Under the pieces are notes generated by a model that saw only the letters and a program-made list of their open reading frames with translations, searched no databases and had not been told where the DNA came from. A stretch of DNA of 64,000 nt, taken from Planctomycetota bacterium. Its GTDB lineage: Bacteria; Planctomycetota; B15-G4; SIAN01. The stretch spans positions 160,001 to 224,000 of the forward strand of contig JANNXA010000014.1 in assembly GCA_031409275.1 (NCBI GenBank), in the 5' to 3' direction. Positions 46,208 to 62,402 of this stretch are shown in pieces (within the stretch, counting starts at the first letter, position 1; every line of letters starts with the position of its first letter). A program made the position numbers and the translations under genes.

Positions 46208-46852
46208 TCACGCTATCCGAGCGTCGCGTGGGAAGCGTCCGTCGCGAAGGAAGGCCACCACGTACTCGTGGACCTTGCGGCTGCCGAGCACCGAAGTGTG
46301 CGTCGCGAGCAGTCGCACGTGGTCGCGCTCGCCATCGAAGTGGGTGCTCGGCTCAGGGACCAGATGGTCGAGGCGGGCCGCGATGACGCCGCACGCGATC
46401 CCCGGCAAGGGCGTCAGCGTGCGTGCTCGACTGTCGTCGCGATCGCGCAGCTCGCGCAACACGGGCACGAGCGGCCCGAGGAAGGGCGCGAGCCAGCGCG
46501 CGACCAGCGAGCCGCGATTCGGCGGCACCAGCATCACGACACGGCCGAGGCCGCGCGGACGCTCGATCGCCAGCGCGGCGCGCGCCACCAGGTTGCCGAG
46601 GCTGTGGCCGACGATGTGCAGCCGACGGCAACCCGGTTCGGCGGCGAGGCGCTTGAGTTCTGCCGCGAACGCACGCCCGTGCTCGTCGATCGAGCCGCGC
46701 ACGCTCGGATAACCGAAGCGGACCGTGCCGAAGCCTGCACGTTCGAGCGCACGCGCCAACGAGCCGAGCGAACGGGTCGTCCGCAGCAGCCCGTGCACCA
46801 GCACCACCCGCTCCTCGCGCACGGACCCGACGCTTCCCGCTTTCTGCGCCAC
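46208..46852 (-). CDS. Alpha/beta hydrolase (lipase/esterase-like)
   Basis: VVLVHGL, GHSLG nucleophile elbow, PPNRGS; start GTG 46852 or 46822. Confidence 0.8.
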   Translation of the reverse strand: MAQKAGSVGSVREERVVLVHGLLRTTRSLGSLARALERAGFGTVRFGYPSVRGSIDEHGRAFAAELKRLAAEPGCRRLHIVGHSLGNLVARAALAIERPRGLGRVVMLVPPNRGSLVARWLAPFLGPLVPVLRELRDRDDSRARTLTPLPGIACGVIAARLDHLVPEPSTHFDGERDHVRLLATHTSVLGSRKVHEYVVAFLRDGRFPRDARIA

Positions 46853-46917
46853 ATGGTGCTCCCGGGCGAAAACACTAGTCTTCCGCGTCCTCGCGTCGAG
46901 CTGCGCCCGGAGAAGAC

Positions 46918-48021
46918 ATGCCCGTCTCGCTGATGGCCCTGCTCGCTTCGCTGCTCCTCCTGCAGACGCCGCCGTCCGATCCATCGCCCGCCGCATGCGA
47001 TGAGGCGCTCGCGACCTTCGAGAACTCGCTCGCCGACGTGCAGGCCGCGACGCTCGCCGACCTTGCCGCCGCGCTCAAGGCACTGCCGGCCGCGCCCCTC
47101 CGGCAACTGCGCGATCACGCCAGGAAGACGCTCACGGTCGAGCTGCGACCGGGCCCGCCTCCATGGTTCGATCCGGTGGAATACGCCGGCGCCGAGGCGG
47201 CGCGAGGCCGGGTCGTGCGCAAGCCGGTCGATCCCGCCGGCGAGGATGCGGCAGCGCAACGCGGCCGCTTCCGGCCGTGGGAGAACGACCCGCCGTTCGC
47301 GATTCGCGTCGAATGGGACTTCGCCAGCGACCGCGCCGTCAAGAACAGCGACGCTCCGCTCGACAGCTTCGGCCAGCTCTTCAATGCGCTGAACGGCTAC
47401 GACCAGGACGCCGACGTGCTGGTCGCATGGCTGCTGTCGCGCTTCGACTTCGAGAAGAAGTTGGACGCCAAGGCGAGCTACTTCGCCCATTCCTACTGCG
47501 ATCTCGGCGGCCGCATCTATCCGGAGATCTCGCTCTACGACGCCTGGTCGTCGGGCACCGGGATGGACATGCCCGACGTCGACACCATCGCGTGGGCGCG
47601 ACTGCTGATGAAGGACAAGTCCTACGTCGCACCGCTGCCGGCCGACGCGCGCCGCCAGAAGCTCTACGACTCGCTCAGCGCCGGCTTCCTCGAGTACTTC
47701 CGCTACCGCATCTGGATCGAGGGGGCGGCGCAGATCTTCATCAACCCGGACGCGCCGTTGCGCGAGGCGCACGAGCCGATGCGACGCCGGCTGCTCCATC
47801 TCTTCACGGTCTGCAAAGGGGAGGTCGAGTCGATCGCCAAGCGGCTGAAGGAGCTCGGCACACGCGACCGCTTCATCGAGGCGATGGACGCCGAGATCGC
47901 GGCCGACCCGCGCGCCGACTCCGCCATCGCGCGATTCGTCGAGAAGCGCGTGCAGGAGCGCTGGACCGTCGCGCGCGCCTGCTACTCCGTCCTGCGCGCA
48001 CACGGCCTCCTCTCCGAATGA
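46918..48021 (+). CDS. Exported hypothetical protein
   Basis: GGAG RBS, signal peptide, strong coding bias; no recognised family. Confidence 0.7.
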   Translation: MPVSLMALLASLLLLQTPPSDPSPAACDEALATFENSLADVQAATLADLAAALKALPAAPLRQLRDHARKTLTVELRPGPPPWFDPVEYAGAEAARGRVVRKPVDPAGEDAAAQRGRFRPWENDPPFAIRVEWDFASDRAVKNSDAPLDSFGQLFNALNGYDQDADVLVAWLLSRFDFEKKLDAKASYFAHSYCDLGGRIYPEISLYDAWSSGTGMDMPDVDTIAWARLLMKDKSYVAPLPADARRQKLYDSLSAGFLEYFRYRIWIEGAAQIFINPDAPLREAHEPMRRRLLHLFTVCKGEVESIAKRLKELGTRDRFIEAMDAEIAADPRADSAIARFVEKRVQERWTVARACYSVLRAHGLLSE

Positions 48022-48067
48022 GCGCTCGGCTCGTGCCGGCGCCGCGGCGGACCGTAAGCTGACGCCG

Positions 48068-48958
48068 ATGAGCTCGAATCGCCCGAACCTCCCGCTGCTT
48101 TCGCCCGCCCCGGCCGCGCACGGCGCGCCCGTCGAGGCCGTCGCGCCATCGAGCGAGCAGCTCGCGCGCCTCCACTCCGGACTCGATGCGCTCGGGAGCG
48201 TCGCGGTCGCGTTCTCAGGCGGGATCGACTCGACCTTGGTCCTGAGAGTCGCCCGCGACCGTCTCGGCGACCGTGCGGTCGGCGTGATCGGCGTCTCCGC
48301 GTCGCTGCCGCCGGGCGAGCTCGAGGAGGCGCGCGCACTGGCCAAGGCGATGGGCGCGACGCTGGTCGAGATCGCGACCGGCGAGATCGCCGACCCCGAC
48401 TACGCGGCCAACCCGGTCAATCGCTGCTACTTCTGCAAGAGCGAGCTCTACCGCCACGTGCTGCCGTGGGCGCGCGCCCAGGGGTTCAACCACGTCGCCG
48501 ATGGAATGAACACGGACGACCTCGGCGATTTCCGTCCGGGCACGAAGGCCGCCGACGAGGCCGGGGTCCGCCATCCGTTGCTCGACGCGGGTTTCGGGAA
48601 GGCCGCCATTCGCGGCCTGGCGCGGCAGCTCGGACTCGAGAACTGGGACAAGCCGGCACTCGCCTGCCTCTCGTCGCGCGTGCCGCACGGCACGGCCATC
48701 GCTCCGGCCATGCTCGACCAGATCGGCCATGCCGAGTTGCTGATCCGACGCCTCGGCTTCGCATCGGTCCGCGTGCGCTGGCATGGGGACGTCGCGCGAA
48801 TCGAGGTTCCCGCGCACGATCTCGAGCGGCTCCTCGCCATGCGCGAGCAGGTGGTGGCCGACGTCCGCTCCACCGGCTTCCGCTTCGTCTCTCTCGATCT
48901 CGACGGTTATCGGACCGGATCGCTGCACCGAACCACCGTCGCGCCGCGCGAGCGCTGA
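48068..48958 (+). CDS. larE: ATP-dependent sulfur transferase LarE family
   Basis: AFSGGIDS PP-loop, NRCYFCK, DGMNTDD..DFRPG, WDKPALACLSSR, VRVR.HG..ARIEV, DLDGYRTGS. Confidence 0.9.
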   Translation: MSSNRPNLPLLSPAPAAHGAPVEAVAPSSEQLARLHSGLDALGSVAVAFSGGIDSTLVLRVARDRLGDRAVGVIGVSASLPPGELEEARALAKAMGATLVEIATGEIADPDYAANPVNRCYFCKSELYRHVLPWARAQGFNHVADGMNTDDLGDFRPGTKAADEAGVRHPLLDAGFGKAAIRGLARQLGLENWDKPALACLSSRVPHGTAIAPAMLDQIGHAELLIRRLGFASVRVRWHGDVARIEVPAHDLERLLAMREQVVADVRSTGFRFVSLDLDGYRTGSLHRTTVAPRER

Positions 48959-49048
48959 CGCCATCACGGCGTCATGACGGCGCGTCCCGCGACGTCGAGG
49001 ACGCCACGGGCCGCGCGCGAAGAACGACGGAAGACGAGGCGCTTCGGG

Positions 49049-52000
49049 TCAGCTGCCCGACGGTCGCAGGTACGGGATCGCGATCGTTTCGACGTTCGGC
49101 AGCAGGAACGTGGACTTGCTGCCCACCAGCGTCGCACGGAACGCCACGTTCTGCCGCGTGTCGCAGGTGTCGACGCTGGTCGAGAAGCCGGTTCCGCCGG
49201 CCCCCTTGATCCCGTTCGATCCCTCGAATTCGAGCGTGACGGAGGTTCCGACCGGTTGGGTCGACGGAGGCGGATCGAGGATCGCCGGGAAGTAGTCCGG
49301 CAACAGCGTGTTGGTCGGGAAGACGCGCACGTACGGCGACGTGATCCGCGACGTCGTCTTCACGTAGTCGAAGACCGCGAGGTAGCGCGAGTTGTCGCCC
49401 GGAATCGGACTGATCGAGGTGGCATTGCCGGTCGCGCAGCGCGCCGCCACGGAGCCGTTGATGTTGTCGGGATTCAGCTTCGACGCCGGCGATCCTTGCG
49501 AGCCGACGCGCCAGCGCGGCTTGCCGAGGAAGTCGATCAGGCAGCCGATGACGAACGAGAAGCCGTTCTGTCCCGAGACCACCGTGTTCTGCGGGCGGAC
49601 GCGAACTTCGAAGAGCAGGCTGTCGCCGCCGACGTTCGCGTTGTTCGAGGTCCGGTAGTCGTCCCACTCGTTGCTGCCGCAGGAGTAGGTGCTGTTGACC
49701 GTCGTGCGCAGGTCCTTCTCGGCCTGCGGGATGTCGCCGTTGTTGTACTGGAACGGCACCGTGAACTCGGGCCACGGGTGCCAGGCGTTGCCGTCTCCCG
49801 GCGGCGTGAAGAGGTTGCCCTGCGTCACGCGGTACTTCGTTCCCGGCTGCACGCAAGTGACCAGCGTGTCCCAGTAGTTGGGGCCGTCGTCGCCGAAGCA
49901 GGTGGCGTTCGCACACGGACTCGTGCCGCCATCGATCAGGTCGATGAAGGAGGTGTAGTCGAACGGAACGCTCATGCCGCTGTCGGGAAACGAGGCGGCG
50001 CCCGTGTTGTTCTGCGAGATCGGGCGCATCGGCGAGTGCGCGCAGTGGATCGAGATGTCGTCATAGGTGTCGGTCGTGACGTTGCCGCCGATCGGCGCCC
50101 AGCTCACGCGGTACAGGTCGAGCAGCGTGCCCGCGAGCGCCACGCTGTTGGGCGAGCAGTCGAAATCACGCCACACCGTCTGGAAGCGTGCACCGTCGTG
50201 CGGCTGTCCTTGCGCCGTCACATTCGAATTGAGCGGCTCCGGCAAACCGGTGAAGAGCTTCGAGAACTGTCCTTCCGGTGGAAAGAACTCGTCGTGGATC
50301 TTGGTGACGAAGACGACCGGCGAGCCGGCCAGCACGCCGTTGGTCTGCAGATTCACGTCCGGGATCGGTCGGTAGTAGTTCGGCTGGTCTCGGTAGCCGA
50401 CGCCCGGCAGCCCGGTGGCGGGATCGATGCCGGTGACCGGACGGCCGCGCATGCGATGCACGATCACGCCCCAGCTCCGCGCGACCGGGGGATTGGGCTG
50501 CGTGATTGCCGCCTCAGCGGCAGTGAAGGTCGTGGTGTAGAGGATCGCGGGTTGCGCCGGATCGAAGCGCGAGTCGGGGAAGCCCACCGGCTGGCCGCCG
50601 AGGTCGACGATGCCGCGAACGCCGTCATCGAGGAACGTCGTGTAGGCCGATGAGCCGAGCTTCTGCTGCAGGTAGCTCGCGCGCGGCACGCTGGTGATCG
50701 CGAGCTGGAGGTTCTTGCTGTTCTTGCCCCACCCGACCACCTCGAAGGTGCCGGCGGCCTGGTCGACGCGGATCGGGCGGATGGTCGCGACCGTCTGCGT
50801 CGAGTCGAGCGAGACGTCGGTCAGCAGTTCCTGGAGTTCGCCGCCATCGGGACTCGCCGAAACGCGAAACGTCTCCCATTGCAGGAACGAATCGTCGGCC
50901 ATCGGCTCGGTGAAGCGCACGCGCAATTCGCAGAAGGTGGGCAGCGTGTTGCGCAGGTCGAGCGGGCCCGCTACGACGTTGCCGGAGCCGTCGATCTCCC
51001 ATGCCTCCACGAAGTTCGCGAGGCTCGCGTTCGCTCCGTTCTGCGGATTGTCCGCATCGAAGCGGGTCGGATCGATCGGGTCGGTCAGCTCAGGCTCGAA
51101 GAGCTCCGCTCGCTCGAGGCGGCACGTGTCGCCGTCCTGCGGCAGCAGCGTGAAGAGTCCGTTGATGGTCACGGTGTCGACGCTGTTGCCGGAGATGACG
51201 TGCGTCTCCTCGGCGGGAGCGCCCGGCCGCAAGACGAGCTTCGCACCGGCCCATTCGCCGCGCCCCGACTTCGACAGCGTCGAGAACGAAGCGCCGGCGA
51301 ACCGGACGCTGCTCGCGCCGGCCACGTCGCCGCCCACGAGGTCGACGACACGCGTGTCCGCGAGCGTACGCACGATGCGCGGCACCGAGACGTCGGGCAG
51401 GAAGCCGTTGTAGGTCTCGTTGGTCGGGATCAGCTGGTTCTGCGCGATGAAGTCGAGGACGCGGTTGCCCGGGTTGATGCCGATGGGCGTCGCCACTTCA
51501 CCGAGCCCGTCGGTGCGCGCGCCAAGGAACGCGCCGCCGGTCGAGCGCAGGACGCTCGGCCCGGTGCGCGGGAGTCGCAGCTTGAGGAAGCCGGTCGCGT
51601 CGGCGCGCGGCTCGCCGCTCGGGCCGAAATTGACAGGGCTCTCCGGGAATCCCACGCTCGTCGCGCCAGACGGGTTGATCCAGATCGTGCGCGCCCCAAC
51701 CTGGGTGATCTCCACGGGGACCGGCGTGCCATCCTGTTGACGCACCTGCACCGAGCCCGCGGTCACGAGCGCACCGTTGGCGTCGATCTCGTCGGCGCGC
51801 AGCGAGCTCGCGTCGATGGGCGCGCTGAACTCGAGTTGGAGCACGCAGTTGCGAGGGATCACTCGCGGCAGGTAGCTCGAACCAAGTCCGAGCGACTGCG
51901 GAGCATCGAGGTCGACGCCGCCCGCCAGCGGCTGCAGCGTTCCCGGTAGCGCCAGACCGGTCACGGCATCGATCTCGACCGTCGTCAGCGGGCTCACGAG

Positions 52001-52174
52001 GCGCGGACCGCTGCCCTCATCGACGAGGCGTCCGTAGTTCACATCGTTCAGGCGGAACCCTGAACTCTTGGTGCCGGCTGGCGATCCACCGCCGCCCGAG
52101 CACGCGCCGATCGCAAACAAGGCGGCGGTCGAGAGCACGCCCAGGAGTCGGGGAGGACGGTTCGAGCGGAACAT
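49049..52174 (-). CDS. Large beta-rich lipoprotein, paralog 1 of tandem triplet
   Basis: GAGGAG RBS; lipobox-like AIGA-C followed by SGGGGS; Ig-like LEFSAPID and VRFTEPM motifs. Confidence 0.8.
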   Translation of the reverse strand: MFRSNRPPRLLGVLSTAALFAIGACSGGGGSPAGTKSSGFRLNDVNYGRLVDEGSGPRLVSPLTTVEIDAVTGLALPGTLQPLAGGVDLDAPQSLGLGSSYLPRVIPRNCVLQLEFSAPIDASSLRADEIDANGALVTAGSVQVRQQDGTPVPVEITQVGARTIWINPSGATSVGFPESPVNFGPSGEPRADATGFLKLRLPRTGPSVLRSTGGAFLGARTDGLGEVATPIGINPGNRVLDFIAQNQLIPTNETYNGFLPDVSVPRIVRTLADTRVVDLVGGDVAGASSVRFAGASFSTLSKSGRGEWAGAKLVLRPGAPAEETHVISGNSVDTVTINGLFTLLPQDGDTCRLERAELFEPELTDPIDPTRFDADNPQNGANASLANFVEAWEIDGSGNVVAGPLDLRNTLPTFCELRVRFTEPMADDSFLQWETFRVSASPDGGELQELLTDVSLDSTQTVATIRPIRVDQAAGTFEVVGWGKNSKNLQLAITSVPRASYLQQKLGSSAYTTFLDDGVRGIVDLGGQPVGFPDSRFDPAQPAILYTTTFTAAEAAITQPNPPVARSWGVIVHRMRGRPVTGIDPATGLPGVGYRDQPNYYRPIPDVNLQTNGVLAGSPVVFVTKIHDEFFPPEGQFSKLFTGLPEPLNSNVTAQGQPHDGARFQTVWRDFDCSPNSVALAGTLLDLYRVSWAPIGGNVTTDTYDDISIHCAHSPMRPISQNNTGAASFPDSGMSVPFDYTSFIDLIDGGTSPCANATCFGDDGPNYWDTLVTCVQPGTKYRVTQGNLFTPPGDGNAWHPWPEFTVPFQYNNGDIPQAEKDLRTTVNSTYSCGSNEWDDYRTSNNANVGGDSLLFEVRVRPQNTVVSGQNGFSFVIGCLIDFLGKPRWRVGSQGSPASKLNPDNINGSVAARCATGNATSISPIPGDNSRYLAVFDYVKTTSRITSPYVRVFPTNTLLPDYFPAILDPPPSTQPVGTSVTLEFEGSNGIKGAGGTGFSTSVDTCDTRQNVAFRATLVGSKSTFLLPNVETIAIPYLRPSGS

Positions 52175-52459
52175 CGGTGGCTCCTCGCGGATGCGGCCAG
52201 CGAGGAGCGTCGACCCACGGATGCGATCGAGGGCGCGGCTCGGCGGCCACTCTCCCTTACTGCGCAGCGTGTGCCGTTCGTGCCACTGCAGCTTCCCGGG
52301 GGAAGCACGCGCGCCGCTCCACCGATCGTGCGACACCGAACATGTTCCAGCTCGCAGCGCTCGCGCTCCGCCCGGGCGCCCCGCGCCCATGGGGACGTCC
52401 GCGGTGAAGCGCGTCAGCGACCGCGAGCCTGCGCGGCGATGGATCGCCGCCGACCGCGC

Positions 52460-55400
52460 TCAGCTTCCGGAAGGCCGCAGGAACGGGATCGCCACGGTGT
52501 CGAGGTTCGGGAGCAGCAACGATTGCTTGTTGCCGACCAGAGTCGCGCGAAACGCGATGTTGCCCTTGGTGTCGGCGATATCGACGACAGTCGAGAAACC
52601 GGTTCCGCTCGCGCCCTTCGTCGAAGTCGCCCCTTCGAACTCCAAGGTGACCGAGGTACCGACCGGCTGCGAGGAGGGCGGCGGATCGATGATCGCCGCG
52701 AAGTAGTCAGGGAGCACCGTGTTCGTCGGGTAGACGCGGACGTAGGGCGAAGTGATCCGCGACGTCGTCTTCACGTAGTCGAAAACGCCGAGGTAGCGCG
52801 AGTTGTCGCCGGGCACCGGCGCGGTCGAGGTCGTGTTGCCTTTGGCGCAGCGGGCTGCCGGCTGGTTGAGGTTGTCGGGGAAGAGCCGGGTCGTCGGCGA
52901 CCCTTGCGAACCGACCCGCCATCGCGGGTTGCCAGCGAAGTCGATGAGGCAGCCGATGACGAACGAGAAGCCGTTGCGACCGGTGACCGTCGTCGTTTGC
53001 GGACGCACGCGCACCTCGAACAGGAGGCTGTCGCCGCCAAGGTTCCCGAAGCCGCCGCTTCGATAGTCCCCCCACTCCTCGCCGCAGCCGTTGTAGGTGC
53101 TGTTGACCGAACTGCGCAGGTCCTTCTCGGCCTGCGGGATATCGCCGTTGTTGTACTGGAACGGCACGGTGAACTGCGGCCACGGATGCCAGGAGTTGCC
53201 GTCACCGGGCGGCGTGAAGAGGTTGTCCTGCGTCACACGGTATTTGGTCCCCGGCTGCACCGTCGTGACCAGGGTGTCCCAGTGGTTGGGCGCATGATCG
53301 GAACCGCAGAAGGCGCCTGGGCACGGGTTCGATCCGCTGCCGTCGATGAAGTCGATGAAGGTCGCGTAGTCGAACGGAATGCTCATGCCGCTCGAGGGAT
53401 AGGAAGCTCCGCCGGTGTTGTTCTGGGAGATCGGCCGCATCGGCGAGTGGGCGCAGTGAATCGAGATGTTGTCGTAGTTGTCGGTCGAGACGTTGCCGCC
53501 GATCGGCGCCCAGCTCACTCGGTAGAGGTCGAGCAGCGTGCCGGCCAGCGCAGCGCTGTTGGGCGAGCAGTCGAAATCGCGCCACACCGTCTGGAAGCGA
53601 GCTCCATCGTGCGGCTGATTCTGCGCCGTGACGTTGGAAGCAAGCGGTTCCGGAAGGCCGGTGAAGAGCTTCGAGAACTGCCCTTCCGGCGGGAAGTACT
53701 CGTCGTGGATCTTGGTGACATAGACCACCGGCGAGCCTGCCAGCAGGCCGTTGGTCTGCAGGTTGACGTCCGGAATCGGTCGGTAGTAGTTCGGCTGATC
53801 GCGATAGCCGATGCCCGGCAGCCCCGTCGCCGGATCGATGCCGGTGACCGGCCGTCCGCGCATGCGATGGACGAGCACGCCCCAGCTCCGCGCAACCGGA
53901 GGATTGGGCTGGGTGATCGCCGCCTCGGAAGCGGAAAAGGTCGTGGTGTAGCGGATCTCGGGTCGGGCGGGATCGAAGCGCGAGTCAGGGAACCCCACCG
54001 GCTGTCCGCCGAGGTCGACCACGCCGCGAACGCCGCTGTCGAGGAACTCGGTGTACGCCGAGGAGCCGAGCTTCTGCTGGAGATAGCTTGCGCGCGGCAC
54101 GCTGGTGATCGCGAGCTGGAGGTTCTTGGTGTTTTTGCCCCAGCCCACCAGCTCGAAGGTGCCGGCAGCCTGGTCGAGTCGGATCGGGCGGATGATCGCG
54201 GTGGTCTGCGTGACATCGAGCGCCACGTCGGTCAGCAGTTCCTGGAGTTCGCCGGCGTCGGGGCTTGGCGAGACGCGGAACGTCTCCCACTGCAGCACCG
54301 AGTCGTCGTCGATCGGCTCGCTGAAGCGAACGCGCAGCTCGGAGAAGGTCGGCAGCGCGTCACGCAGCGAGATCGGCCCCGCCACGACATTTCCCGCCGC
54401 GTCGATCTCCCATCCCTCGACGAAGCTCGCGAGGCTGGTGTTCTCGGCGTTCTGGGGGTTGTCGGCGTCGAAGCGCGTGGTGTCGATCGGATCGGTGAGC
54501 TCAGGCTCGAAGAGCTCGATTCGCTCGAGCTGGCACGCATCGCCATCCTGCGGTGGCAGGACGAAGTTCGACTCGACGCTGATCGTGTCGACCGTGTTGC
54601 CGACGACGACCCGCGTCTCCTCGTCGGGCGCACCTGGCCGCACCACGAGCTTGGCACCGGCCCACTCCCCGAGACCGCCCTTCGCCAGAGTTGAGAACGC
54701 GGCCGCGATGAACCGCACGCTCGCCGCGCCCACGACGTCACCGCTGCCGAGATCGACCACGTGCCGATCCGCGTAGGTCCGCACGATCCGCGGCACCGAA
54801 ACGTCGGGCAGGAAACCGTTGTAGGTCTCGTTGGTCGGGATCAGCTGGTTCTGCGCGATGAAGTCGAGGACGCGGTTGCCGGGATTGAGGCCGACGGGGG
54901 TCGCCAGTTCGCCGAGCCCATCGGAACGCGCGCCCAGGAAGGCACCTCCCGTCGAACGGAGGATGCGCGACCCGTTACGCGGCAGGCGCAGCTTGAGGAA
55001 TCCCGTCGCGTCGGCGCGCGGCTCTCCGGAAGGCCCGAAATCGACGGGACTCGGCGGGAAACCGATGCCGCTCGCGGCGACGGGATCGATCCAGAGGGTG
55101 CGCGCGCCCGCCAACGTGACGACGACTGGAATCGGCGTTCCGTCCTGCAACCGAACCTGCACCGAGCCGGCGGTGACCAGCGCCCCGTTGGCGTCGATCA
55201 CATCGGCGGCGACCGAGGCCGGATCGATGGGAGCCGAGAACTCGAGCTGCAGGATTCCGTTGCGCGGCACCACGCGCGGCAAATAGCTCGATCCGAGGCC
55301 GAGCGACTGGAGGGAATCGACGTCGCCTCCCGACGCCAGCGGGGCGAGCGTGCCCGGAACGATGCGGCCGGTCGTGAGGTCGGTGTCGACCGTGGTGAGC

Positions 55401-55588
55401 GGACTCACGAGCCGCGGCCCGCTGCCGTCGTCGACGAGTCGACCGTACTTCACGTCGTTCAGGAGAAAGCCCGAGCTCTTCTTTCCTTGCGACGTTCCAC
55501 CGCCTCCGCCTGAACAGGCGGACACCGCCAGCAGCCCAGCGGAGGCCAGAACGAGCTTCGGCGATCGTGCGCGAAGGGAGTTCAACAT
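52460..55588 (-). CDS. Large beta-rich lipoprotein, paralog 2 of tandem triplet
   Basis: GGGGA RBS; AVSA-C followed by SGGGGG; colinear with paralogs 1 and 3. Confidence 0.8.
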   Translation of the reverse strand: MLNSLRARSPKLVLASAGLLAVSACSGGGGGTSQGKKSSGFLLNDVKYGRLVDDGSGPRLVSPLTTVDTDLTTGRIVPGTLAPLASGGDVDSLQSLGLGSSYLPRVVPRNGILQLEFSAPIDPASVAADVIDANGALVTAGSVQVRLQDGTPIPVVVTLAGARTLWIDPVAASGIGFPPSPVDFGPSGEPRADATGFLKLRLPRNGSRILRSTGGAFLGARSDGLGELATPVGLNPGNRVLDFIAQNQLIPTNETYNGFLPDVSVPRIVRTYADRHVVDLGSGDVVGAASVRFIAAAFSTLAKGGLGEWAGAKLVVRPGAPDEETRVVVGNTVDTISVESNFVLPPQDGDACQLERIELFEPELTDPIDTTRFDADNPQNAENTSLASFVEGWEIDAAGNVVAGPISLRDALPTFSELRVRFSEPIDDDSVLQWETFRVSPSPDAGELQELLTDVALDVTQTTAIIRPIRLDQAAGTFELVGWGKNTKNLQLAITSVPRASYLQQKLGSSAYTEFLDSGVRGVVDLGGQPVGFPDSRFDPARPEIRYTTTFSASEAAITQPNPPVARSWGVLVHRMRGRPVTGIDPATGLPGIGYRDQPNYYRPIPDVNLQTNGLLAGSPVVYVTKIHDEYFPPEGQFSKLFTGLPEPLASNVTAQNQPHDGARFQTVWRDFDCSPNSAALAGTLLDLYRVSWAPIGGNVSTDNYDNISIHCAHSPMRPISQNNTGGASYPSSGMSIPFDYATFIDFIDGSGSNPCPGAFCGSDHAPNHWDTLVTTVQPGTKYRVTQDNLFTPPGDGNSWHPWPQFTVPFQYNNGDIPQAEKDLRSSVNSTYNGCGEEWGDYRSGGFGNLGGDSLLFEVRVRPQTTTVTGRNGFSFVIGCLIDFAGNPRWRVGSQGSPTTRLFPDNLNQPAARCAKGNTTSTAPVPGDNSRYLGVFDYVKTTSRITSPYVRVYPTNTVLPDYFAAIIDPPPSSQPVGTSVTLEFEGATSTKGASGTGFSTVVDIADTKGNIAFRATLVGNKQSLLLPNLDTVAIPFLRPSGS

Positions 55589-55668
55589 CGGCGAGTCCCC
55601 AGGATCGGGAGCGGTAACGACCAGCGGCGCCAACCGCGGAGATCATGGCACGATCGAACCGAAAACGA

Positions 55669-55698
55669 TGTCGAGCGGGCCATGGGGCCCGCTCGACA
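55669..55698 (-). terminator. Perfect 13-bp hairpin between paralogs 3 and 2
   Basis: TGTCGAGCGGGCC-N4-GGCCCGCTCGACA, followed on the minus strand by TCGTTTT. Confidence 0.6.
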
Positions 55699-55747
55699 AG
55701 AAGAAAGTGCTTAGCAGAGCAGGTCAGATCAAGCGACCGGCTCGCGA

Positions 55748-58700
55748 TCAGGTGCCGGAAGGCCGCAGATACGGGATCGCCACGGTGTCGCAGTTGGGAA
55801 GCAGCAAGGTCGAAATATTGCCGGTCAGTGTGGCGCGGAACGCGACGTTGGGCTTGGTGTCGCAGATGTCGACGCTCGTCGAGAAGCCAGTGCCGGACGC
55901 GCCCTTGATGGTGGTGGCCCCTTCGAATTCGAAGGTGACCGAAGTGCCGACCGGCTGGCTGCTGACCGGCGGATCGACGATCACCGGGAAGTAATCCGGC
56001 AGCAGCGTTCCGGACGGGAAGACGCGGACATACGGCGAGGTGATGCGTGAGGTCGTCTTCACGTAGTCGAAGACGCCGAGGTAGCGCGAGCTGTCGCCCG
56101 GGTTCGGCGTCGCGGACGTCTGATTGCCGACGGCGCAACGCGCGGCCGCCGAGGTGTTGATGTTGTCGGGCTGCAGACGCGATGTCGGCGAGCCTTCCGA
56201 ATGCGCGCGCCAGTCCGGCTTGCCGGACGCATCGATCAGGCAGCCGATGACGTAGGAGAAGCCGTTGAGGCCGGTGATGAGGCCTTGCTGCGGCCGGATG
56301 CGCACCTCGAAAAGGAGGCTGTCGCCGCCCTTGTTGTCGACGAAGGGATCGGAGTTGTAGTCGCGGTAGTCGACCCAGGGGTTCCCGCCCTGGCAGGTGA
56401 AGTCATCGTTGATCGACTTGATGAGGTCTTTTTCCGCGGTCGGGGTGTCGCCGTTGTTGTACTGGAAGCGCACGTCGAAGGTCGGCCACGGATGCCACGC
56501 GTTTCCGTCGAACGGCGGCGTGAAGAGGTTGCTCTGGGTGATCTTGTACTTCGTCCCGGGCTGGACCACGGTCACCAGGGTGTCCCAGTAGTGCGGCCCG
56601 TCGTTCGACGAGCAGGTGGTCCCGGCGCACGGGTCGTTGCCGCCGCCATCGAACTCGTCGACCCAGGTCGCATAGTCGAACGGGACGCCGAGTCCGCTCT
56701 GCGGATAGGTCGCAGCCGCGGTGTCGTTCGCCGAATTCGGTCGGATCGGCGAGTGCGCGCAATGGACCGAGATGTTGTCGTAGCTGTCGGTGCTGACGTT
56801 GCCGCCGATGGGCGCCCAGCTCACGCGGTAGAGATCGAGCAACGTCCCGGCGAGACCAAGGCTGTTGGGCGAGCAGTCGATGTCGCGGAACACCGACTGG
56901 AAACGCGCGCCGTCGTGCGCCGAGTTCTGCGCCGTCAGGTTCGTGGTGATCGGCTCGGGCAATCCGTTGAAGAGCTTCGAGAACTGGCCGATCGGCGGCG
57001 GGAAGAACTCGTCGTGGATCTTGGTGATGTAGACCACCGGCGAGCCGGCGAGCAGGCCGTTCGTCTGGAGATTCACGTCCGCGATCGGCAGGTAGTAGTT
57101 GGTCTGGTCCCGGAAGCCGACGCCGGGCTTCCCGGTGGCCGGATCGAGACCGGTCACGGGCCGTCCGCGCATGCGGTGCACCATGACGCCCCAGCTGCTC
57201 ACGACGGGTGGCACCGGCTGCGTCGACGCCGTCTCAGCCGACGTGAACGTCGTGAAGAAGCGGATCGCTGGGGACGCCGAATCGAAGCGCGACAGCGGGA
57301 ACCCAAGCGGCTGACCGCCGAGGTCGAGCACTCCGCGAAATCCGAGGTCGAGGAACGAGTCGTACTCTGCGGTCGTCAGGAACTGCTGCAGGAACGTGGC
57401 GCGCGGAATCGTCGAGATGGTCAGCTGGAGGTTCTTGGTGTTCTTGCCCCAACCGGTGATCTGGAACGTTCCCGCCGCCTGATCGACGCGCGCCGGACGG
57501 ATCGTCGCAACGGTCTGCGTCGAGTCGAGGAAGACCTCGGTCAGGAGCTCCTGGGTTTCGCCGCCGTCAGGATTCAGCGAGACACGGAAGGTCTCCCACT
57601 GCCGGAAGGAGTCGTCCGCCATCGGCTCGCTGAAGCGAACTCGCAGCTCCGAGAAAGAGGGCACCGCCGTACGCAAGCTGGTCGGACCGGCGACGGCGTT
57701 GCCGGCGGCGTCGATCTCGTAGACCTCGACGAAATTGGCGAGGCTCGAGTTGTTGAGGTTCTCCGGGTTGTCGGCGTCGAACAGCAACGGATCGATGGGA
57801 TCGGTGAGATCGGGCTCGAAGTACTCGGTCCGCTTCAACTCGTAGGCGTCGCCGTTCTGGGGCTGCGTTGCGAACGCCGTCGACAGCACGAGCGTGTCAC
57901 CGTCGTTCGAGACGATCGAGAGCGTCTCCTCGCTCGAGGTCCCGGGTCGCAGGACGAGGCTCGCGCCCGCCCACTCGCCGAGGCCGCCATTGGAGCTGGT
58001 GTTGTCGTTGGAAGAGACGTCGTTCAGCGAGGTCGCCGTGGCGCTGTCACCCGCGAGGGTGTCGAAGGTCCGCGGCACGTCGTAGATGCGCACGATGCGC
58101 GGGATCGACAGGTCCGGCAGGAAGCCGTTGAAGGTTTCGTTGGTGGGGATGAGCTGGTTCTGAGCGATGAAGTCGAGGACGCGATTGCCGGGGTTGACGC
58201 CGATCGGCGTGGCGACTTCGCCGAGCCGGTCCGAGCGCTGCCCGAGGAATGCGCCGCCGGTCGAGCGCAGGATGTTCGCGCCCGTTCGCGGCAGTCGCAA
58301 CTTGAGGTAGCCGGTGGCGTCGGCGCGCGGCTCGCCGCTCGGCCCGAAGTCGACTGGACTTGCCGGGAATCCCACCTGACCGTTGGCAACCGGGTTGATC
58401 CAGATCGTGCGCGCGCCGACAAGGCGCACCTCGACCGGCACCGGCGTCCCATCTTCGAGGCGCACTTGGACCGAGCCTGCGGTGACCAACGCGCCGTTGC
58501 CGTTGATGGTGTCGGCGACGACCGACGCCGCCGCGACGGGCGCGGAGAATTCGAGCTGAAGGACCGCGTTGCGCGGCACGACCCGCGGCAAGTAGCCCGT
58601 CCCGAGACCGAGCGACTGCGGAGCGAAGACGTCGACGCCAACCGCGAGTGGCTCGAGCGTTCCCGGGATGAGGTCACCCGTGATCGGATCGACCTGCGCC

Positions 58701-58894
58701 GTCGTCAACGGGCTGACGAGCGACTCGTTCACGCCGTCGTCGATGAGGCGGCCGTACTTGACGTCGTTCAGCAGGAACGAGGCGCTCTTGCCGCCGGCCG
58801 AACTCGACCCGCCGCCCCCGCCGCAGTTCACGATCAGGCCGCTCGCTACGAGCAACGTCGCCCAGGAGCCGACTCGCTTCGAACCCATGCTCAT
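55748..58894 (-). CDS. Large beta-rich lipoprotein, paralog 3 of tandem triplet
   Basis: GGGAG RBS; LIVN-C followed by GGGGGS; colinear with paralogs 1 and 2; start 58894 or 58888. Confidence 0.8.
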   Translation of the reverse strand: MSMGSKRVGSWATLLVASGLIVNCGGGGGSSSAGGKSASFLLNDVKYGRLIDDGVNESLVSPLTTAQVDPITGDLIPGTLEPLAVGVDVFAPQSLGLGTGYLPRVVPRNAVLQLEFSAPVAAASVVADTINGNGALVTAGSVQVRLEDGTPVPVEVRLVGARTIWINPVANGQVGFPASPVDFGPSGEPRADATGYLKLRLPRTGANILRSTGGAFLGQRSDRLGEVATPIGVNPGNRVLDFIAQNQLIPTNETFNGFLPDLSIPRIVRIYDVPRTFDTLAGDSATATSLNDVSSNDNTSSNGGLGEWAGASLVLRPGTSSEETLSIVSNDGDTLVLSTAFATQPQNGDAYELKRTEYFEPDLTDPIDPLLFDADNPENLNNSSLANFVEVYEIDAAGNAVAGPTSLRTAVPSFSELRVRFSEPMADDSFRQWETFRVSLNPDGGETQELLTEVFLDSTQTVATIRPARVDQAAGTFQITGWGKNTKNLQLTISTIPRATFLQQFLTTAEYDSFLDLGFRGVLDLGGQPLGFPLSRFDSASPAIRFFTTFTSAETASTQPVPPVVSSWGVMVHRMRGRPVTGLDPATGKPGVGFRDQTNYYLPIADVNLQTNGLLAGSPVVYITKIHDEFFPPPIGQFSKLFNGLPEPITTNLTAQNSAHDGARFQSVFRDIDCSPNSLGLAGTLLDLYRVSWAPIGGNVSTDSYDNISVHCAHSPIRPNSANDTAAATYPQSGLGVPFDYATWVDEFDGGGNDPCAGTTCSSNDGPHYWDTLVTVVQPGTKYKITQSNLFTPPFDGNAWHPWPTFDVRFQYNNGDTPTAEKDLIKSINDDFTCQGGNPWVDYRDYNSDPFVDNKGGDSLLFEVRIRPQQGLITGLNGFSYVIGCLIDASGKPDWRAHSEGSPTSRLQPDNINTSAAARCAVGNQTSATPNPGDSSRYLGVFDYVKTTSRITSPYVRVFPSGTLLPDYFPVIVDPPVSSQPVGTSVTFEFEGATTIKGASGTGFSTSVDICDTKPNVAFRATLTGNISTLLLPNCDTVAIPYLRPSGT

Positions 58895-59143
58895 GCTTTC
58901 GACTCCCAACAACGAACGATCGCCGCAGAGGCGTCACGCCCCGCGGGATCCGATGGCCCGTTTCTCTCTCGCTTGCGGCAACTCCCGAGTAGCCGCCCGA
59001 GCGCTCCCTGCAACATCCCGCGAGGAAGTCGTCACGACACGCGGCAGTGTAGCGGTGAAGCCGCGCTAAGATGCCGCGCCCTCCGCGGCCTGGCCAGCCC
59101 CCACCGGCCCACCGGCGCCGCCCTCCTCGGAGCTGTCTTCCCC

Positions 59144-60247
59144 ATGGCCAAGCCGTCCGCCGCCGCCACTTACGCCCAGTCCGGGGTGAGCTTCGACCGC
59201 AAGGAGACGTTCCTGGGCGCGCTGCTGCGCTGGGTCAAACGAACCGAGACGATCCCGGCCGCCGGCCAGCGACCCCTTCTCCCGAACGGCTACTACGCGA
59301 GCGTCCTCGACATCGGATTGCCGACGGCCATCGCGCTGACCACGGACGGCGTGGGCAGCAAGATCCTGATCGCGGAAGCGGCCGGCGACTTCTCCTCGCT
59401 CGGGTTCGACGTCGTTGCGATGAACGTGAACGACCTGCTCTGCGTCGGAGCGATGCCGGTCGCGCTCGTCGATTACATCGCCATGCAGGCTCCGCCGACC
59501 GCCGTCGGTGAAGCGCTCGGCAAGAGCCTCTACCTCGCGGCCAAGCAGGCGGGGATCTCGATCCCTGGCGGCGAGCTCGCGCAACTCCCCGACATGATCT
59601 GCGGCCTCGCCCCGGGACAGGGGCTCGACCTCGCCGCTGCCGCCATCGGCACCGTGGAGAAGGAACACGCCAGCAATGGCCAGGGCATCGAGCCGGGCGA
59701 CGTGCTGATCGGCATCGCGTCGAACGGCGTGCACAGCAACGGCTACACGCTCGTGCGCGAGATCTGCTTCAAGCGCCGCAAGTTCAAGATCGACCTCGCC
59801 GTCCCGGAGTTCGGCGGCACGCTCGGTGCCGAGCTGCTGCGCCCGACCGCGATCTACGTCCCGCAGTTCCGCGCGCTCGCCGCGAAATCGCTGCGCCCGC
59901 GCGCGGCGATGCACATCACCGGCGGCGGCTACCTGAACCTGCTGCGCGCCGCCACGAAGAACATCACCTTCGTCATCGACACGCCGCCCGCGATCCCGCC
60001 GGTCTTCACCTTCCTCCAGCGCGAAGGCAAGGTGACCGACGAGGAGATGCACCGCGTCTTCAACCTCGGCGTCGGCATGGTCCTGGTCGTGCCGGCGGCC
60101 AACGTCACCGCGACGCTCGCCGTGCTCGGCAAGCGCGGCTGGCCGAAGGCGAGCGTGATCGGACGCGTCGAGAAGGGGCGCGGCAAGAGCGTCCGCTTCC
60201 CGACCCGCGAGCTCGTCGGCCGCGGCGACGAGTTCACGCGCAGCTGA
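59144..60247 (+). CDS. purM: Phosphoribosylformylglycinamidine cyclo-ligase (AIR synthetase)
   Basis: TYAQSGV, TDGVGSK, AMNVND, GGE, SNGVHSNGYTL, LLRPTAIY, HITGGG, EMHRVFNLGVGM. Confidence 0.92.
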   Translation: MAKPSAAATYAQSGVSFDRKETFLGALLRWVKRTETIPAAGQRPLLPNGYYASVLDIGLPTAIALTTDGVGSKILIAEAAGDFSSLGFDVVAMNVNDLLCVGAMPVALVDYIAMQAPPTAVGEALGKSLYLAAKQAGISIPGGELAQLPDMICGLAPGQGLDLAAAAIGTVEKEHASNGQGIEPGDVLIGIASNGVHSNGYTLVREICFKRRKFKIDLAVPEFGGTLGAELLRPTAIYVPQFRALAAKSLRPRAAMHITGGGYLNLLRAATKNITFVIDTPPAIPPVFTFLQREGKVTDEEMHRVFNLGVGMVLVVPAANVTATLAVLGKRGWPKASVIGRVEKGRGKSVRFPTRELVGRGDEFTRS

Positions 60248-60263: not shown

Positions 60264-62402
60264 TCAGCGCGGCCCCTTCAGCGCCGCAGGAACCATCCGT
60301 AGCCCCGGCTCGTCGATCTCCGCTTCGATCACCGGACGCACCTGCGCGTCGATCGCAGCGGCACCCGGCAACTCGTCAGCGACGGCCACCGCGGCGAACC
60401 AGTGCATGGCGTAGGTGATCCAGCTGGCGGCCGGCACCGGTGGCGGCGTGAATCCGCCGCGCGGGCGCCACGTCTCGGGTCCGAGGCCGGCGCTGCCGTC
60501 GACCCCGTTCGGCAGCGACGGCTGCTTGCCCGGGTCGAACTGATGGTCGAGGTTCACTCGCAGCCACCACGCGCACTCGGCGAAGCTGCCGATGAAGCGG
60601 CGGCTGTCCGCGACCTGCTTCCACTCGCCGCGCTCGAGGGTCGGAACGAAGGTCGAGACCGGGAACGAATAGGAGAGTGCGGTGGCGCCGTTCTCCCAGC
60701 GGACGGTGGTTCCATCCGGGGCGCGCCACGTCTCGCCGACGCTCGCGTACGCACGCGCGAAGTACTCCGCCTGCCACTCCCACAAGAAGCGCGCATCGGC
60801 GTTGCCGAGCAGTCGATCGGTCCACCAGCAGGAGGTCGCAACCCAGGTCGCCTGCCACGGACTCCAGAACGTGGCGCAGACCCACGTCTTGCGGCCGCTC
60901 GACTGGAAACCGCCGCTCCCCCACGTATGCAGCGGGGCGGGCGACTGCTCGATCGTGGCGCGCAGCTCGGCGAGGTTGTCGGTCACCCGCTTCCGGAAGT
61001 AGCCCTTCAACGGATGGGCGTCGGGCAGCAACTGCGCCGCGAGCATCGTCGTGCGCAGCGACCACGCGAAGTCGCGCGAGCCGGGATAGCGATAGCGGCC
61101 GTCATGCGGCCAGTCGTAGAAGCAGTAGGCCGCCAGCGCGGCGAACTCCTCCTCCGCGAAGCGCTCTCCGGTCAGCAAGAACGAGAGCGCGCCGAGCAGC
61201 GGCGAATGCGAGCGATCGGCCGTCTGCGGGCACTTGCGCTTGGTGGCGCGCTTCTCCAGCGCCTTGGCGGCGCCGAACTCGACGCCCATGGTCCCGTCGC
61301 GTCCGCGCACATGGATCGGAAACGAGGCGGCACCGTTCCAGTCTGCGGCGCGCAACAGGTCGTCGGCCACGACGCTCTTCGAGTTGAGCGCGAGCGCGCC
61401 CCATGACGGGATCGGCCCGATGTCGCCGCGATCACCGGTCGAAGGCATGTAGCGCGCGATCGGACCGGGATCGAGCGGGATGCCGACCTCGTAGCGCTTC
61501 GCATCCAACGATCCGTTCTGATCGCCGTCGATCAGTCGCCGCGCCAGCTCGTCGGCGCGTGCCGGCGCCAGCGGATGGCGCGCGTCGTACGGCGGGATCC
61601 ACCCGTGCAGCGTCAGGTAGGCCAGGTCTTCGCGTACGCGCACGTTCGGTGGCTCGCCACCGACGTGGCGGCGCACCGCGAAGCGCGTCCGATCCCAGAC
61701 GATGCCATCGCGCAGATCGGCCAGCACCTCATCGCCCGCGATCACCACGAGGCGCGCGAACTCGACGTCATCCGGCGGCGGCGCGCCGCTACCGCCGAGC
61801 GCGGTGTTCTCCAACACGACCTCGACGCGCGCCCCTTCGATGCCGGCGAGCTGCCGCCACCGGACACGCACCGAGAGGCGCGGCAGCTCGCCCTCCGGAC
61901 TGCGCAGCGTGGCCACCTGCTCGAGTTCGCGCGCGAGCGGCCCGTCGACCGGTCCGCGCGCGTTCGCCCGCTCCGGTGCCGGCGCTTCCACGATCGCGGT
62001 GAAGCGCGCTCCATCGCGCGCCAGCAGTTCGACGGCGACGGGCGGCGCCGGCCCGCGCTCGAGGAATGGCTCCTGGCGCGGCGGCGCGGGCGACGGCACC
62101 AGCCACACCTCGCGCGTCGCATTCGGCGCGAGGTCGAGCGGCAAGGTCACCAGCGCGTGCTGCAGCGAGCCGTCGCGGTGGCGCGAGAGCAGATCGACCT
62201 GCGCAGCGACCACCGCCGGCTTGCCGTCGGCGCTGCCATCGCGCACCACGACGCACAGTTCGCCATCGTGGAAACGGCCAGGCGCGAGCAGCGCCGACAA
62301 CGTCACCGGCAACGCCTTCGCGCCGCGACCGGATCGATCGGAGACCTCGAAGCGCACCTCGTCGCCAAAGAGCGCGGCGCACAGCAGCAGCAGGGCATGC
62401 AT
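60264..62402 (-). CDS. Exported hypothetical protein (beta-rich N-terminus, Trp-rich helical C-terminus; possibly carbohydrate-active)
   Basis: Short signal; AQVD...RHRDGSLQHALV; YMPSTGDRGDIG; start overlaps the upstream stop. Confidence 0.65.
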   Translation of the reverse strand: MHALLLLCAALFGDEVRFEVSDRSGRGAKALPVTLSALLAPGRFHDGELCVVVRDGSADGKPAVVAAQVDLLSRHRDGSLQHALVTLPLDLAPNATREVWLVPSPAPPRQEPFLERGPAPPVAVELLARDGARFTAIVEAPAPERANARGPVDGPLARELEQVATLRSPEGELPRLSVRVRWRQLAGIEGARVEVVLENTALGGSGAPPPDDVEFARLVVIAGDEVLADLRDGIVWDRTRFAVRRHVGGEPPNVRVREDLAYLTLHGWIPPYDARHPLAPARADELARRLIDGDQNGSLDAKRYEVGIPLDPGPIARYMPSTGDRGDIGPIPSWGALALNSKSVVADDLLRAADWNGAASFPIHVRGRDGTMGVEFGAAKALEKRATKRKCPQTADRSHSPLLGALSFLLTGERFAEEEFAALAAYCFYDWPHDGRYRYPGSRDFAWSLRTTMLAAQLLPDAHPLKGYFRKRVTDNLAELRATIEQSPAPLHTWGSGGFQSSGRKTWVCATFWSPWQATWVATSCWWTDRLLGNADARFLWEWQAEYFARAYASVGETWRAPDGTTVRWENGATALSYSFPVSTFVPTLERGEWKQVADSRRFIGSFAECAWWLRVNLDHQFDPGKQPSLPNGVDGSAGLGPETWRPRGGFTPPPVPAASWITYAMHWFAAVAVADELPGAAAIDAQVRPVIEAEIDEPGLRMVPAALKGPR

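Follow-up and report, generated by a model that had tools for sequence, protein, structure and literature searches.

What are three neighbouring genes for proteins of about 1040 residues, copies of one another and matched by no named family, likely to contribute to an uncultured planctomycete? The question is raised by a window of 64,000 nucleotides (the whole stretch of DNA analysed here, positions 160,001 to 224,000 of contig JANNXA010000014.1 in assembly GCA_031409275.1, from a Planctomycetota bacterium), in which genes A, B and C form a tandem triplet:

49049..52174, minus strand: gene A, paralogue of 1041 amino acids; likely start ATG at 52174, beginning MFRSNRPP; database entry P0007 (1041 amino acids)
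52460..55588, minus strand: gene B, paralogue of 1042 amino acids; likely start ATG at 55588; database entry P0004; the protein used for modelling; 79% identical to A
55748..58894, minus strand: gene C, paralogue of 1048 amino acids; likely start ATG at 58894; database entry P0011; 69% identical to A and to B

The reading that we favour, at a probability of about 0.45, is that the three genes encode predicted lipid-anchored envelope proteins of stalk-and-head construction, non-enzymatic and binding in function, with the paralogues differing in specificity or regulation. Within this reading we infer the lipidation, the membrane and its face, the binding function and the ligand. The family to which the proteins belong is unnamed in every library searched and falls within a known general kind, that of multi-domain beta-sandwich envelope lipoproteins.

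Three genuine copies kept by purifying selection

The genes occupy long minus-strand open frames (49049-52390 for A, 52460-55633 for B, 55748-58912 for C), all three intact and co-oriented, with colinear translations. The identities listed above are those of the trimmed proteins; over the long frames, identity to gene A amounts to 78% and 69%, and nucleotide identity among the three is 71-80%. The blocks FGPSGEPRADATG, NPGNRVLDFIAQNQLIPTNET, HRMRGRPVTG and LAGTLLDLYRVSWAPIGGNV, which the initial annotation had quoted as shared, are all located at homologous positions in A, B and C, and purine-rich runs resembling a ribosome-binding site stand 5-10 nucleotides upstream of the starts (GAGGAG for A, GGGAG for C and a weaker GGGGA for B). 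Open frames and ATG starts together confirm its description of three intact, co-oriented and colinear genes spanning 49049-58894. The host genome holds exactly these three copies of the family.

Similar neighbours invite the suspicion of an artefact, that is, of an assembly duplicate or a collapsed repeat in place of three genuine genes. One circumstance feeds it: the small contigs end at corresponding positions of A and B, where the two share words, so the order of A and B segments is not independently bridged. We give the suspicion next to no chance, considering that nucleotide identity is just 71-80% with a synonymous divergence (dS) of 0.64-0.82, that no frame is broken, that the B and C orthologues stand in tandem in a related genome (L015), and that the tree described below puts B and C with different orthologues. 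Moreover, 48500-59500 is covered by contigs from two sequencing runs, possibly those of the source samples, which recover every segment with 0 differences at a depth of 13-27, similar to that of the flanks. The array consists of old paralogues, and an assembly duplicate is excluded.

The ratio of nonsynonymous to synonymous divergence (dN/dS, Nei-Gojobori) is 0.22 for A-B, 0.34 for A-C and 0.31 for B-C (overall range among the three, 0.22-0.35), so that, at the dS given, differences between the copies are enriched at synonymous sites; orthologue comparisons give 0.22 (B) and 0.24 (C). All three copies are kept under purifying selection, which the initial annotation had surmised from the synonymous position of many differences. 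A maximum-likelihood tree of 23 of the 62 aligned family members (the window's three, the nearest clades and outgroups) groups B with P0005/P0006 to the exclusion of A (support 100/98) and C with P0013/P0015 (100/100), in agreement with a FastTree tree of the 60 members of at least 900 residues (two shorter ones dropped). Both duplications are therefore older than the split from those relatives.

Predicted lipid anchor and distribution of the family

The N-termini carry the features on which the predicted membrane anchoring depends:

52100..52174, minus strand: predicted type II signal peptide of gene A, ending in the lipobox IGAC, with Cys25
55514..55588, minus strand: predicted type II signal peptide of gene B, ending in the lipobox VSAC, with Cys25
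58823..58894, minus strand: predicted signal peptide of gene C, ending in IVNC, with Cys24, a less canonical lipobox
55469..55513, minus strand: Gly/Ser-rich tether of gene B, residues 26-40, disordered in the model (predicted local distance difference test score, pLDDT, below 50 for residues 1-36)

Each protein begins with a basic and hydrophobic leader, followed by a lipobox-like cysteine (residues 25, 25 and 24) and a run of four to five glycines. The cysteine is conserved in 90% of the 62 aligned family members. A lipobox-like motif, called by pattern check and not by a trained predictor, is present in 48 of the 62, and 44 of these 48 have at least five Gly/Ser in the next 12 residues; the cysteine and poly-Gly tether noted at the outset for A, B and C are thus found family-wide. 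Genes for both Lgt (PF01790, 229.5 bits, C14:313032-313829) and LspA (PF01252, 101.3 bits, C52:1129-1602) are present in the same genome. A cysteine followed by poly-Gly is rare in the whole genome (G000), where it occurs in 13 of 159 crude lipoprotein candidates and is concentrated in a few very large proteins, including a 1242-residue FG-GAP/ASPIC protein and a 1159-residue Big_5 protein.

Library searches supplied no name. Pfam gave the three proteins only sub-threshold matches to Big_5 (PF13205), at 18.1 bits for B, 17.6 bits for C and none for A (gathering cut-off 23.6 bits); a Big_5 match at E ≤0.01 was found in 5 of 21 family members, and distant relatives of 1020-1072 residues pass the threshold. 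For the three proteins there was no match in NCBIfam, no enzyme family in Pfam or NCBIfam and none of the PHROGs families. A sequence search of the PDB with a single protein returned only a chance-level row, and the family profile returned one weak row over positions 925-1001, to the scaffolding protein 1g43 (E 0.0025), which we take to be the family 3 carbohydrate-binding module (CBM) of a cellulosome scaffoldin. In the ESM Atlas the whole protein had no usable match and residues 560-1042 scored 0.85-0.86 at best, short of the 0.9 lead level; Rfam yielded a single chance-level row over 48500-59500. No description of the family was found among the papers listed by topical literature searches, as judged on titles and abstract beginnings.

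Homologues are numerous. A word-indexed search returned 54 proteins at E ≤0.001, those with a named source lacking a functional name and coming from metagenome-assembled Planctomycetota, and an exhaustive search yielded 177 representatives at E ≤0.001, of which 47 reach ≤1e-30. A further set of 61 homologues has the same kind of named sources, apart from the three entries discussed below, and most hits bear no source name at all. Fused forms of 1825-5000 residues were not seen at E ≤1e-5, which is weak evidence. Within the same uncultured Planctomycetota order, 38 of 41 sampled genomes have a match, with one to six matches each; the three that lack one have completeness values of 78%, 95% and 88%. 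Seven genomes (G000, G004, G005, G007, G008, G014 and G020) carry full-length copies side by side on one contig. In a phylum-wide sample, 63 of 301 genomes have a match, full-length only in the order (the window's own genome plus 13 of the 15 other order genomes), those outside it being partial and mostly confined to the last 100-190 residues. Sequence identity is 56% within a family of genomes and 35-40% across the families of the order. Distant relatives of about 1000-1100 residues have the C-terminal half in common at 27-31% identity, and the same pattern check finds a lipobox-like motif in 20 of the 44 inspected.

Two side observations arise from these searches. The last 100-190 residues (gene B residues ~855-1042, window positions 52463-53026) turn up again as the C-terminus of numerous Planctomycetota proteins (~290-1400 residues) that are unrelated in the remainder, including a group of ~480 residues that mostly start with apparent ordinary signal peptides; 24 scanned proteins carrying the stretch match no Pfam family except Big_5, and the stretch may be an undescribed C-terminal domain. 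Three family members (P0045/L018, on a 2.4-kb contig, P0250 and P0256), one of them a partial entry, are filed under 'Candidatus Eiseniibacteriota' (one) or 'Pseudohongiellaceae' (two) bins, labels that we suspect to be binning errors rather than signs of transfer.

The main rival to the binding reading is a structural one, according to which the family would be the main lipid-anchored coat, or lattice resembling a surface layer (S-layer), of the order, with paralogues that co-assemble or substitute for each other. Near-universal presence in the order with only partial, mostly C-terminal matches elsewhere in the phylum, one to six copies per genome with tandem arrays in seven, conservation over the whole length, and the concentration of the rare Cys-poly-Gly tether in a few giant proteins would all suit a coat, as would the strong hairpin after gene C and the housekeeping context described further below. 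The Ig-like (immunoglobulin-like) domains, too, resemble those of S-layer SbsC (Z 7.8-8.0, 97-102 residues aligned), but a Pfam scan of the three proteins and of 21 family members detects no surface-layer homology (SLH) domain and no other domain known to anchor S-layers. S-layer proteins are usually less conserved in sequence at the level of an order than this family is, and a genome that is 95% complete (G012) does without it. Codon usage, moreover, gives no sign of high expression, the three genes lying at the 34th-70th percentile of a codon adaptation index that is uninformative here, its median being 0.687 for the ribosomal cluster and 0.680 for the genome. Taking these points together, we judge the coat unlikely. 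A more sweeping version, in which the giant poly-Gly-tethered lipoproteins form the outer coat of the order, the paralogues share one mixed layer and the C-terminal 100-190 residues serve as a phylum-wide surface-docking module, appears to us a long shot.

Predicted structure and a proposed function of the head

An AlphaFold2 model of the gene B protein, built with a 62-row alignment, divides the chain beyond the tether into four parts:

54803..55468, minus strand: domain D1 of gene B, residues 41-262; beta domain with the first Big_5-like segment LQLEFSAPIDPASV; aligns with L,D-transpeptidase Ig-like domains at Z 7.0-7.1 over 85-99 residues
54503..54802, minus strand: domain D2 of gene B, residues 263-362; small beta sandwich; the fastest-evolving part, with paralogue dN/dS of 0.37-0.58
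53909..54502, minus strand: domain D3 of gene B, residues 363-560; second Big_5-like Ig domain LRVRFSEPIDDDSV and two short helices
52463..53908, minus strand: C-terminal module of gene B, residues 561-1042; the most conserved region; pLDDT 94, predicted template modelling score (pTM) 0.90

The full-length model (pLDDT 90.1, pTM 0.83) is disordered in residues 1-36 and almost wholly beta in the rest; the C-terminal 483 residues modelled alone reach pLDDT 94.0 and pTM 0.90. We read the C-terminal module as an outer jelly roll (residues ~568-620 and ~943-1040) into which a second jelly roll (~621-942) would be inserted, because one set of structural matches spans the first ~60 and last ~100 residues of the module and a second set spans its positions 62-383; this reading rests on alignment ranges, not on inspection of coordinates. 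Among regions compared between paralogue pairs, D2 has the highest dN/dS, and the strands with which the outer jelly roll begins have the lowest (0.06-0.20).

Structure comparison with VIA-align against 48,161 PDB representatives found the N-terminal half to resemble Ig-like domains, namely those from phage tail tips (Z 8.4-8.8), the MG domain of macroglobulins (7.9-8.3), and those from S-layer SbsC (7.8-8.0) and CopC (6.6-7.5). The C-terminal module aligned with podovirus tail nozzle proteins (Z 8.0-8.4, ~130 residues) and, at Z 5.5-7, with CBM61, CBM16, CBM29, CBM4, porphyran- and alginate-binding modules, the Eph ligand-binding domain and the sugar-binding domains of Fbs1/Fbs2. The best Z overall is 8.8, and the matches are generic. 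Foldseek with the whole model against the PDB gave one match at E ≤0.001, with a template modelling (TM) score of 0.07; with the module it gave weak rows only, to a phi812 baseplate chain (E 8e-5, TM 0.21), double-jelly-roll capsids, tandem CBM22 and peptidylglycine hydroxylating monooxygenase (PHM). Among viral models (BFVD), the best matches are phage proteins, at TM 0.31-0.32. None of the matches in these comparisons is to a catalytic domain. The folds of the model are of known types, and the C-terminal module as a whole, as modelled, is without a close solved relative. A homodimer prediction for the module (2 x 483 residues) scored 0.00 against a mark of 0.42, which speaks neither for nor against assembly. 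The initial annotation had recognised Ig-like segments only and no catalytic motif: the Ig-like domains are there and no catalytic family or fold is recognised, and beyond the Ig-like parts the model shows a module of 480 residues that we read as jelly rolls.

The mechanism that we propose for the favoured binding reading would start with export of the protein by Sec. Lgt and LspA would then attach lipid to the lipobox cysteine (residue 24 or 25) and remove the leader that precedes it, and the Gly/Ser tether of ~12-15 residues would provide a flexible link to the membrane. The three Ig-like beta domains would form a stalk, bearing a compact, lectin-like head of 480 residues composed of two nested jelly rolls of CBM type, and the head would hold a ligand, for which a glycan or a surface protein is the likeliest candidate. 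Ligands, or conditions of expression, would differ from copy to copy; D2 is the domain that differs most among the three, and each copy has its own upstream spacer. The proposal of a surface structural or adhesive role, made when the locus was first annotated, appears compatible with these sequence-derived data.

Several observations weigh against a dedicated binding protein. All structural scores are such as models that lack a true relative commonly reach (best Z typically 7-8). Past the signal peptide, conservation is even along the length (0.44-0.76 per 40-residue block, with a peak at residues 681-720) and is not focused on one site. The presence in 38 of 41 genomes of the order, together with housekeeping neighbours in its other families, is no less consistent with a core role in the envelope than with niche-specific binding. 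Finally, the module contains invariant or near-invariant polar residues (H574, R575, D629, R664, Q666, R670, D673, S675, D687, H714, S715, E858 and R860), of which H574, D629, R664, Q666, R670, D673, S675, H714 and S715 could equally be catalytic.

It is from these residues that a case can be made for the module as an unrecognised envelope-tethered enzyme; polysaccharide lyases or hydrolases, and two-jelly-roll enzymes in the manner of PNGase F or PHM, would be examples. Weak Foldseek rows do lead to PHM and PNGase F (E 0.016-0.1, TM ≤0.2). PHM, however, has two copper sites built from conserved His (and Met), and in the window's family H574 and H714 are the only histidines conserved to at least 85%, with no methionine besides the start, so that the two His-rich sites are missing. 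The top 50 VIA-align rows comprise binding modules, phage tail proteins and enzymes; the enzymes align by beta-sandwich parts that are not catalytic, and no row aligns by a catalytic domain, nor does any enzyme family of Pfam or NCBIfam match. Genes adjacent to family members could be taken as further hints, namely the sulfatases beside copies at ten loci and the S8 subtilase beside copies at four loci of another family of the order, but planctomycete genomes carry many sulfatases, hence the adjacency may be chance, and the subtilase shares with its neighbour just an N-terminal extension that is missing from the window's proteins. On balance an enzyme seems to us improbable, and a non-enzymatic head is retained.

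Genomic surroundings and known systems compared

Around and between the three genes, two further features bear on transcription:

55669..55698, minus strand: terminator-like hairpin between gene C and gene B; 13-bp stem with 10 G-C pairs and a T-rich tail
58895..59143, no strand assigned: intergenic region common to gene C and the divergent AIR-synthase-related gene; presumably contains the gene C promoter

On the 3' side of gene A lies a convergent PP-loop ATPase-like gene (plus strand), and ~250 nucleotides upstream of gene C a divergent AIR-synthase-related gene (plus strand); ThiG, a TraB/GumN-like gene and an alpha/beta hydrolase are found further out in the window. Since these neighbours are ordinary metabolic genes on the opposite strand, the triplet is an island of its own and not part of a larger operon. 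The hairpin after C and the spacers of ~160 and ~285 nucleotides upstream of B and A suggest that the genes are transcribed separately; no sigma-70 consensus was found in the intergenic region upstream of C.

When the open reading frames of 32 loci were clustered, no partner gene shared across the order emerged, and synteny was confined to families (a group of 11 loci, a second of 6 and a third of 4 that are close to the window). We are therefore dealing with a gene family and not a multi-gene system, and the term 'system' in the initial annotation is not supported, given the missing accessory gene and the metabolic flanks on the other strand. The 11 loci come from two families of the order; in them the gene stands after RNase G, Obg, CoaX and an MnmE-like GTPase and before another unnamed protein (1378 residues in the locus examined; median open reading frame 1630 residues), with a prepilin peptidase further on. 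At the 6 loci, from a third family, it follows a sulfatase, PurA, UppS, CdsA, PhoH and YbeY, and in 4 of them it precedes an S8 subtilase. Synteny with housekeeping genes may reflect conserved gene order only.

Some observations on the neighbours deserve record in their own right. The S8 subtilase and the adjacent family member share an N-terminal extension of ~190 residues (28% identity, E 3e-13), as exemplified by L036:7182-11165 (the family member, 1327 residues) and L036:11341-14043, and likewise at L026, L028 and L040; the window's proteins are without it. The unnamed protein directly downstream at the 11 loci (e.g., L037:11688-15824, 1378 residues, plus 10 more) represents a second giant family, with two homologues elsewhere in the window's own genome (C16 and C27). 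The C16 copy (G000 C16:217863-220970, L062) is a Cys-plus-poly-Gly lipoprotein candidate and, by hhalign (probability 71%, E 3.8e-5), has its last ~75 residues in common with the window's family. Sulfatase genes are no more than a few kilobases away from family members at L022, L023 and L027 (one genome) and at L026, L028, L033, L036, L040, L041 and L049. In the window itself, two adjacent minus-strand genes, 60264-62402 and 62402-63589, encode proteins of 712 and 395 residues without a Pfam match and keep the same place in the 4 closest loci; the 395-residue protein has a basic, Ala-rich hydrophobic leader resembling a signal peptide. A 603-residue minus-strand frame (46534-48345), Arg-rich and of low complexity, overlaps a 367-residue plus-strand frame (46918-48021) that passes the third-position G+C test, and looks like an antisense artefact of high G+C.

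The importance of the triplet is that it belongs to a large and well-folded family, kept in most sampled genomes of an uncultured order and often in several copies, yet without a name in any library. The definition of the family by lipobox and Gly tether, Ig-like stalk and jelly-roll head makes it a clean target for asking how these planctomycetes build or use their envelope. Because the confident model of the head lacks a close structural relative, solving its structure or screening it for ligands would enlarge the known repertoire of binding domains by one module. On its own, the finding opens no long-standing question.

Among known systems, the phage tail nozzle and baseplate proteins (Pa223, VP1, SU10 and GP4; phi812) align with the jelly-roll core of the module at Z 7.5-8.4 over 113-132 residues, the phi812 baseplate chain also by Foldseek with a probability of 0.90. 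With TM ≤0.32, no PHROG match and no phage genes nearby, they have only a fold type in common with the family. The jelly-roll modules CBM61, CBM16, CBM29, CBM4, CBM6 and CBM22, which are of the galactose-binding-domain-like type, align with the outer jelly roll at Z 5.5-6.9 over 106-129 residues, whereas the scores are at common-fold level and no CBM family of Pfam matches.

The bacterial alpha-2-macroglobulins (E. coli, 4zjg; Salmonella, 4u48), themselves lipoproteins of multi-domain beta-sandwich build, bring up a periplasm-facing alternative, a lipoprotein of envelope maintenance such as a macroglobulin-like protease trap or a factor of envelope biogenesis. One MG-like domain of the window family aligns at Z 7.9-8.3 (rmsd 2.6, 100-103 residues), envelope-lipid genes (UppS, CdsA) are among the housekeeping neighbours in one family of the order, and the present data do not tell exposure on the outer surface from periplasmic anchoring. 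However, the resemblance is limited to that single domain in proteins of ~1040 residues, compared with 1538 for the listed Salmonella chain; the thioester motif C[GLA]EQ is absent from A, B and C, and the C-terminal jelly-roll module has no counterpart in macroglobulins. Macroglobulins pair with PBP1c, and no PBP1c-type neighbour is seen in the window. We consider this alternative very improbable and continue to prefer a ligand-binding stalk and head.

Proteins with Big_5 domains, S-layer SbsC among them (Ig-like domain at Z 7.8-8.0), resemble the window family in its two segments with the FSxPxD-type motif, while the window proteins score below the 23.6-bit gathering threshold and Big_5 is a domain, not a family. 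From the SusE/SusF glycan-binding lipoproteins of Bacteroidota, the window family is set apart by the lack of any sequence or Pfam match, by its approximately twofold length, and by jelly rolls that we read in the model as nested and not in a row. It is likewise set apart by the absence of SusC/SusD-type neighbours: those in the window are ThiG and the TraB/GumN-like, alpha/beta hydrolase, PP-loop ATPase-like and AIR-synthase-related genes, and those of the relatives are housekeeping genes, sulfatases and a subtilase. What the two have in common is the construction plan, in the window family a predicted one: an N-terminal lipid anchor, a membrane-near Ig-like domain and beta-sandwich modules of CBM type, with no catalytic domain.

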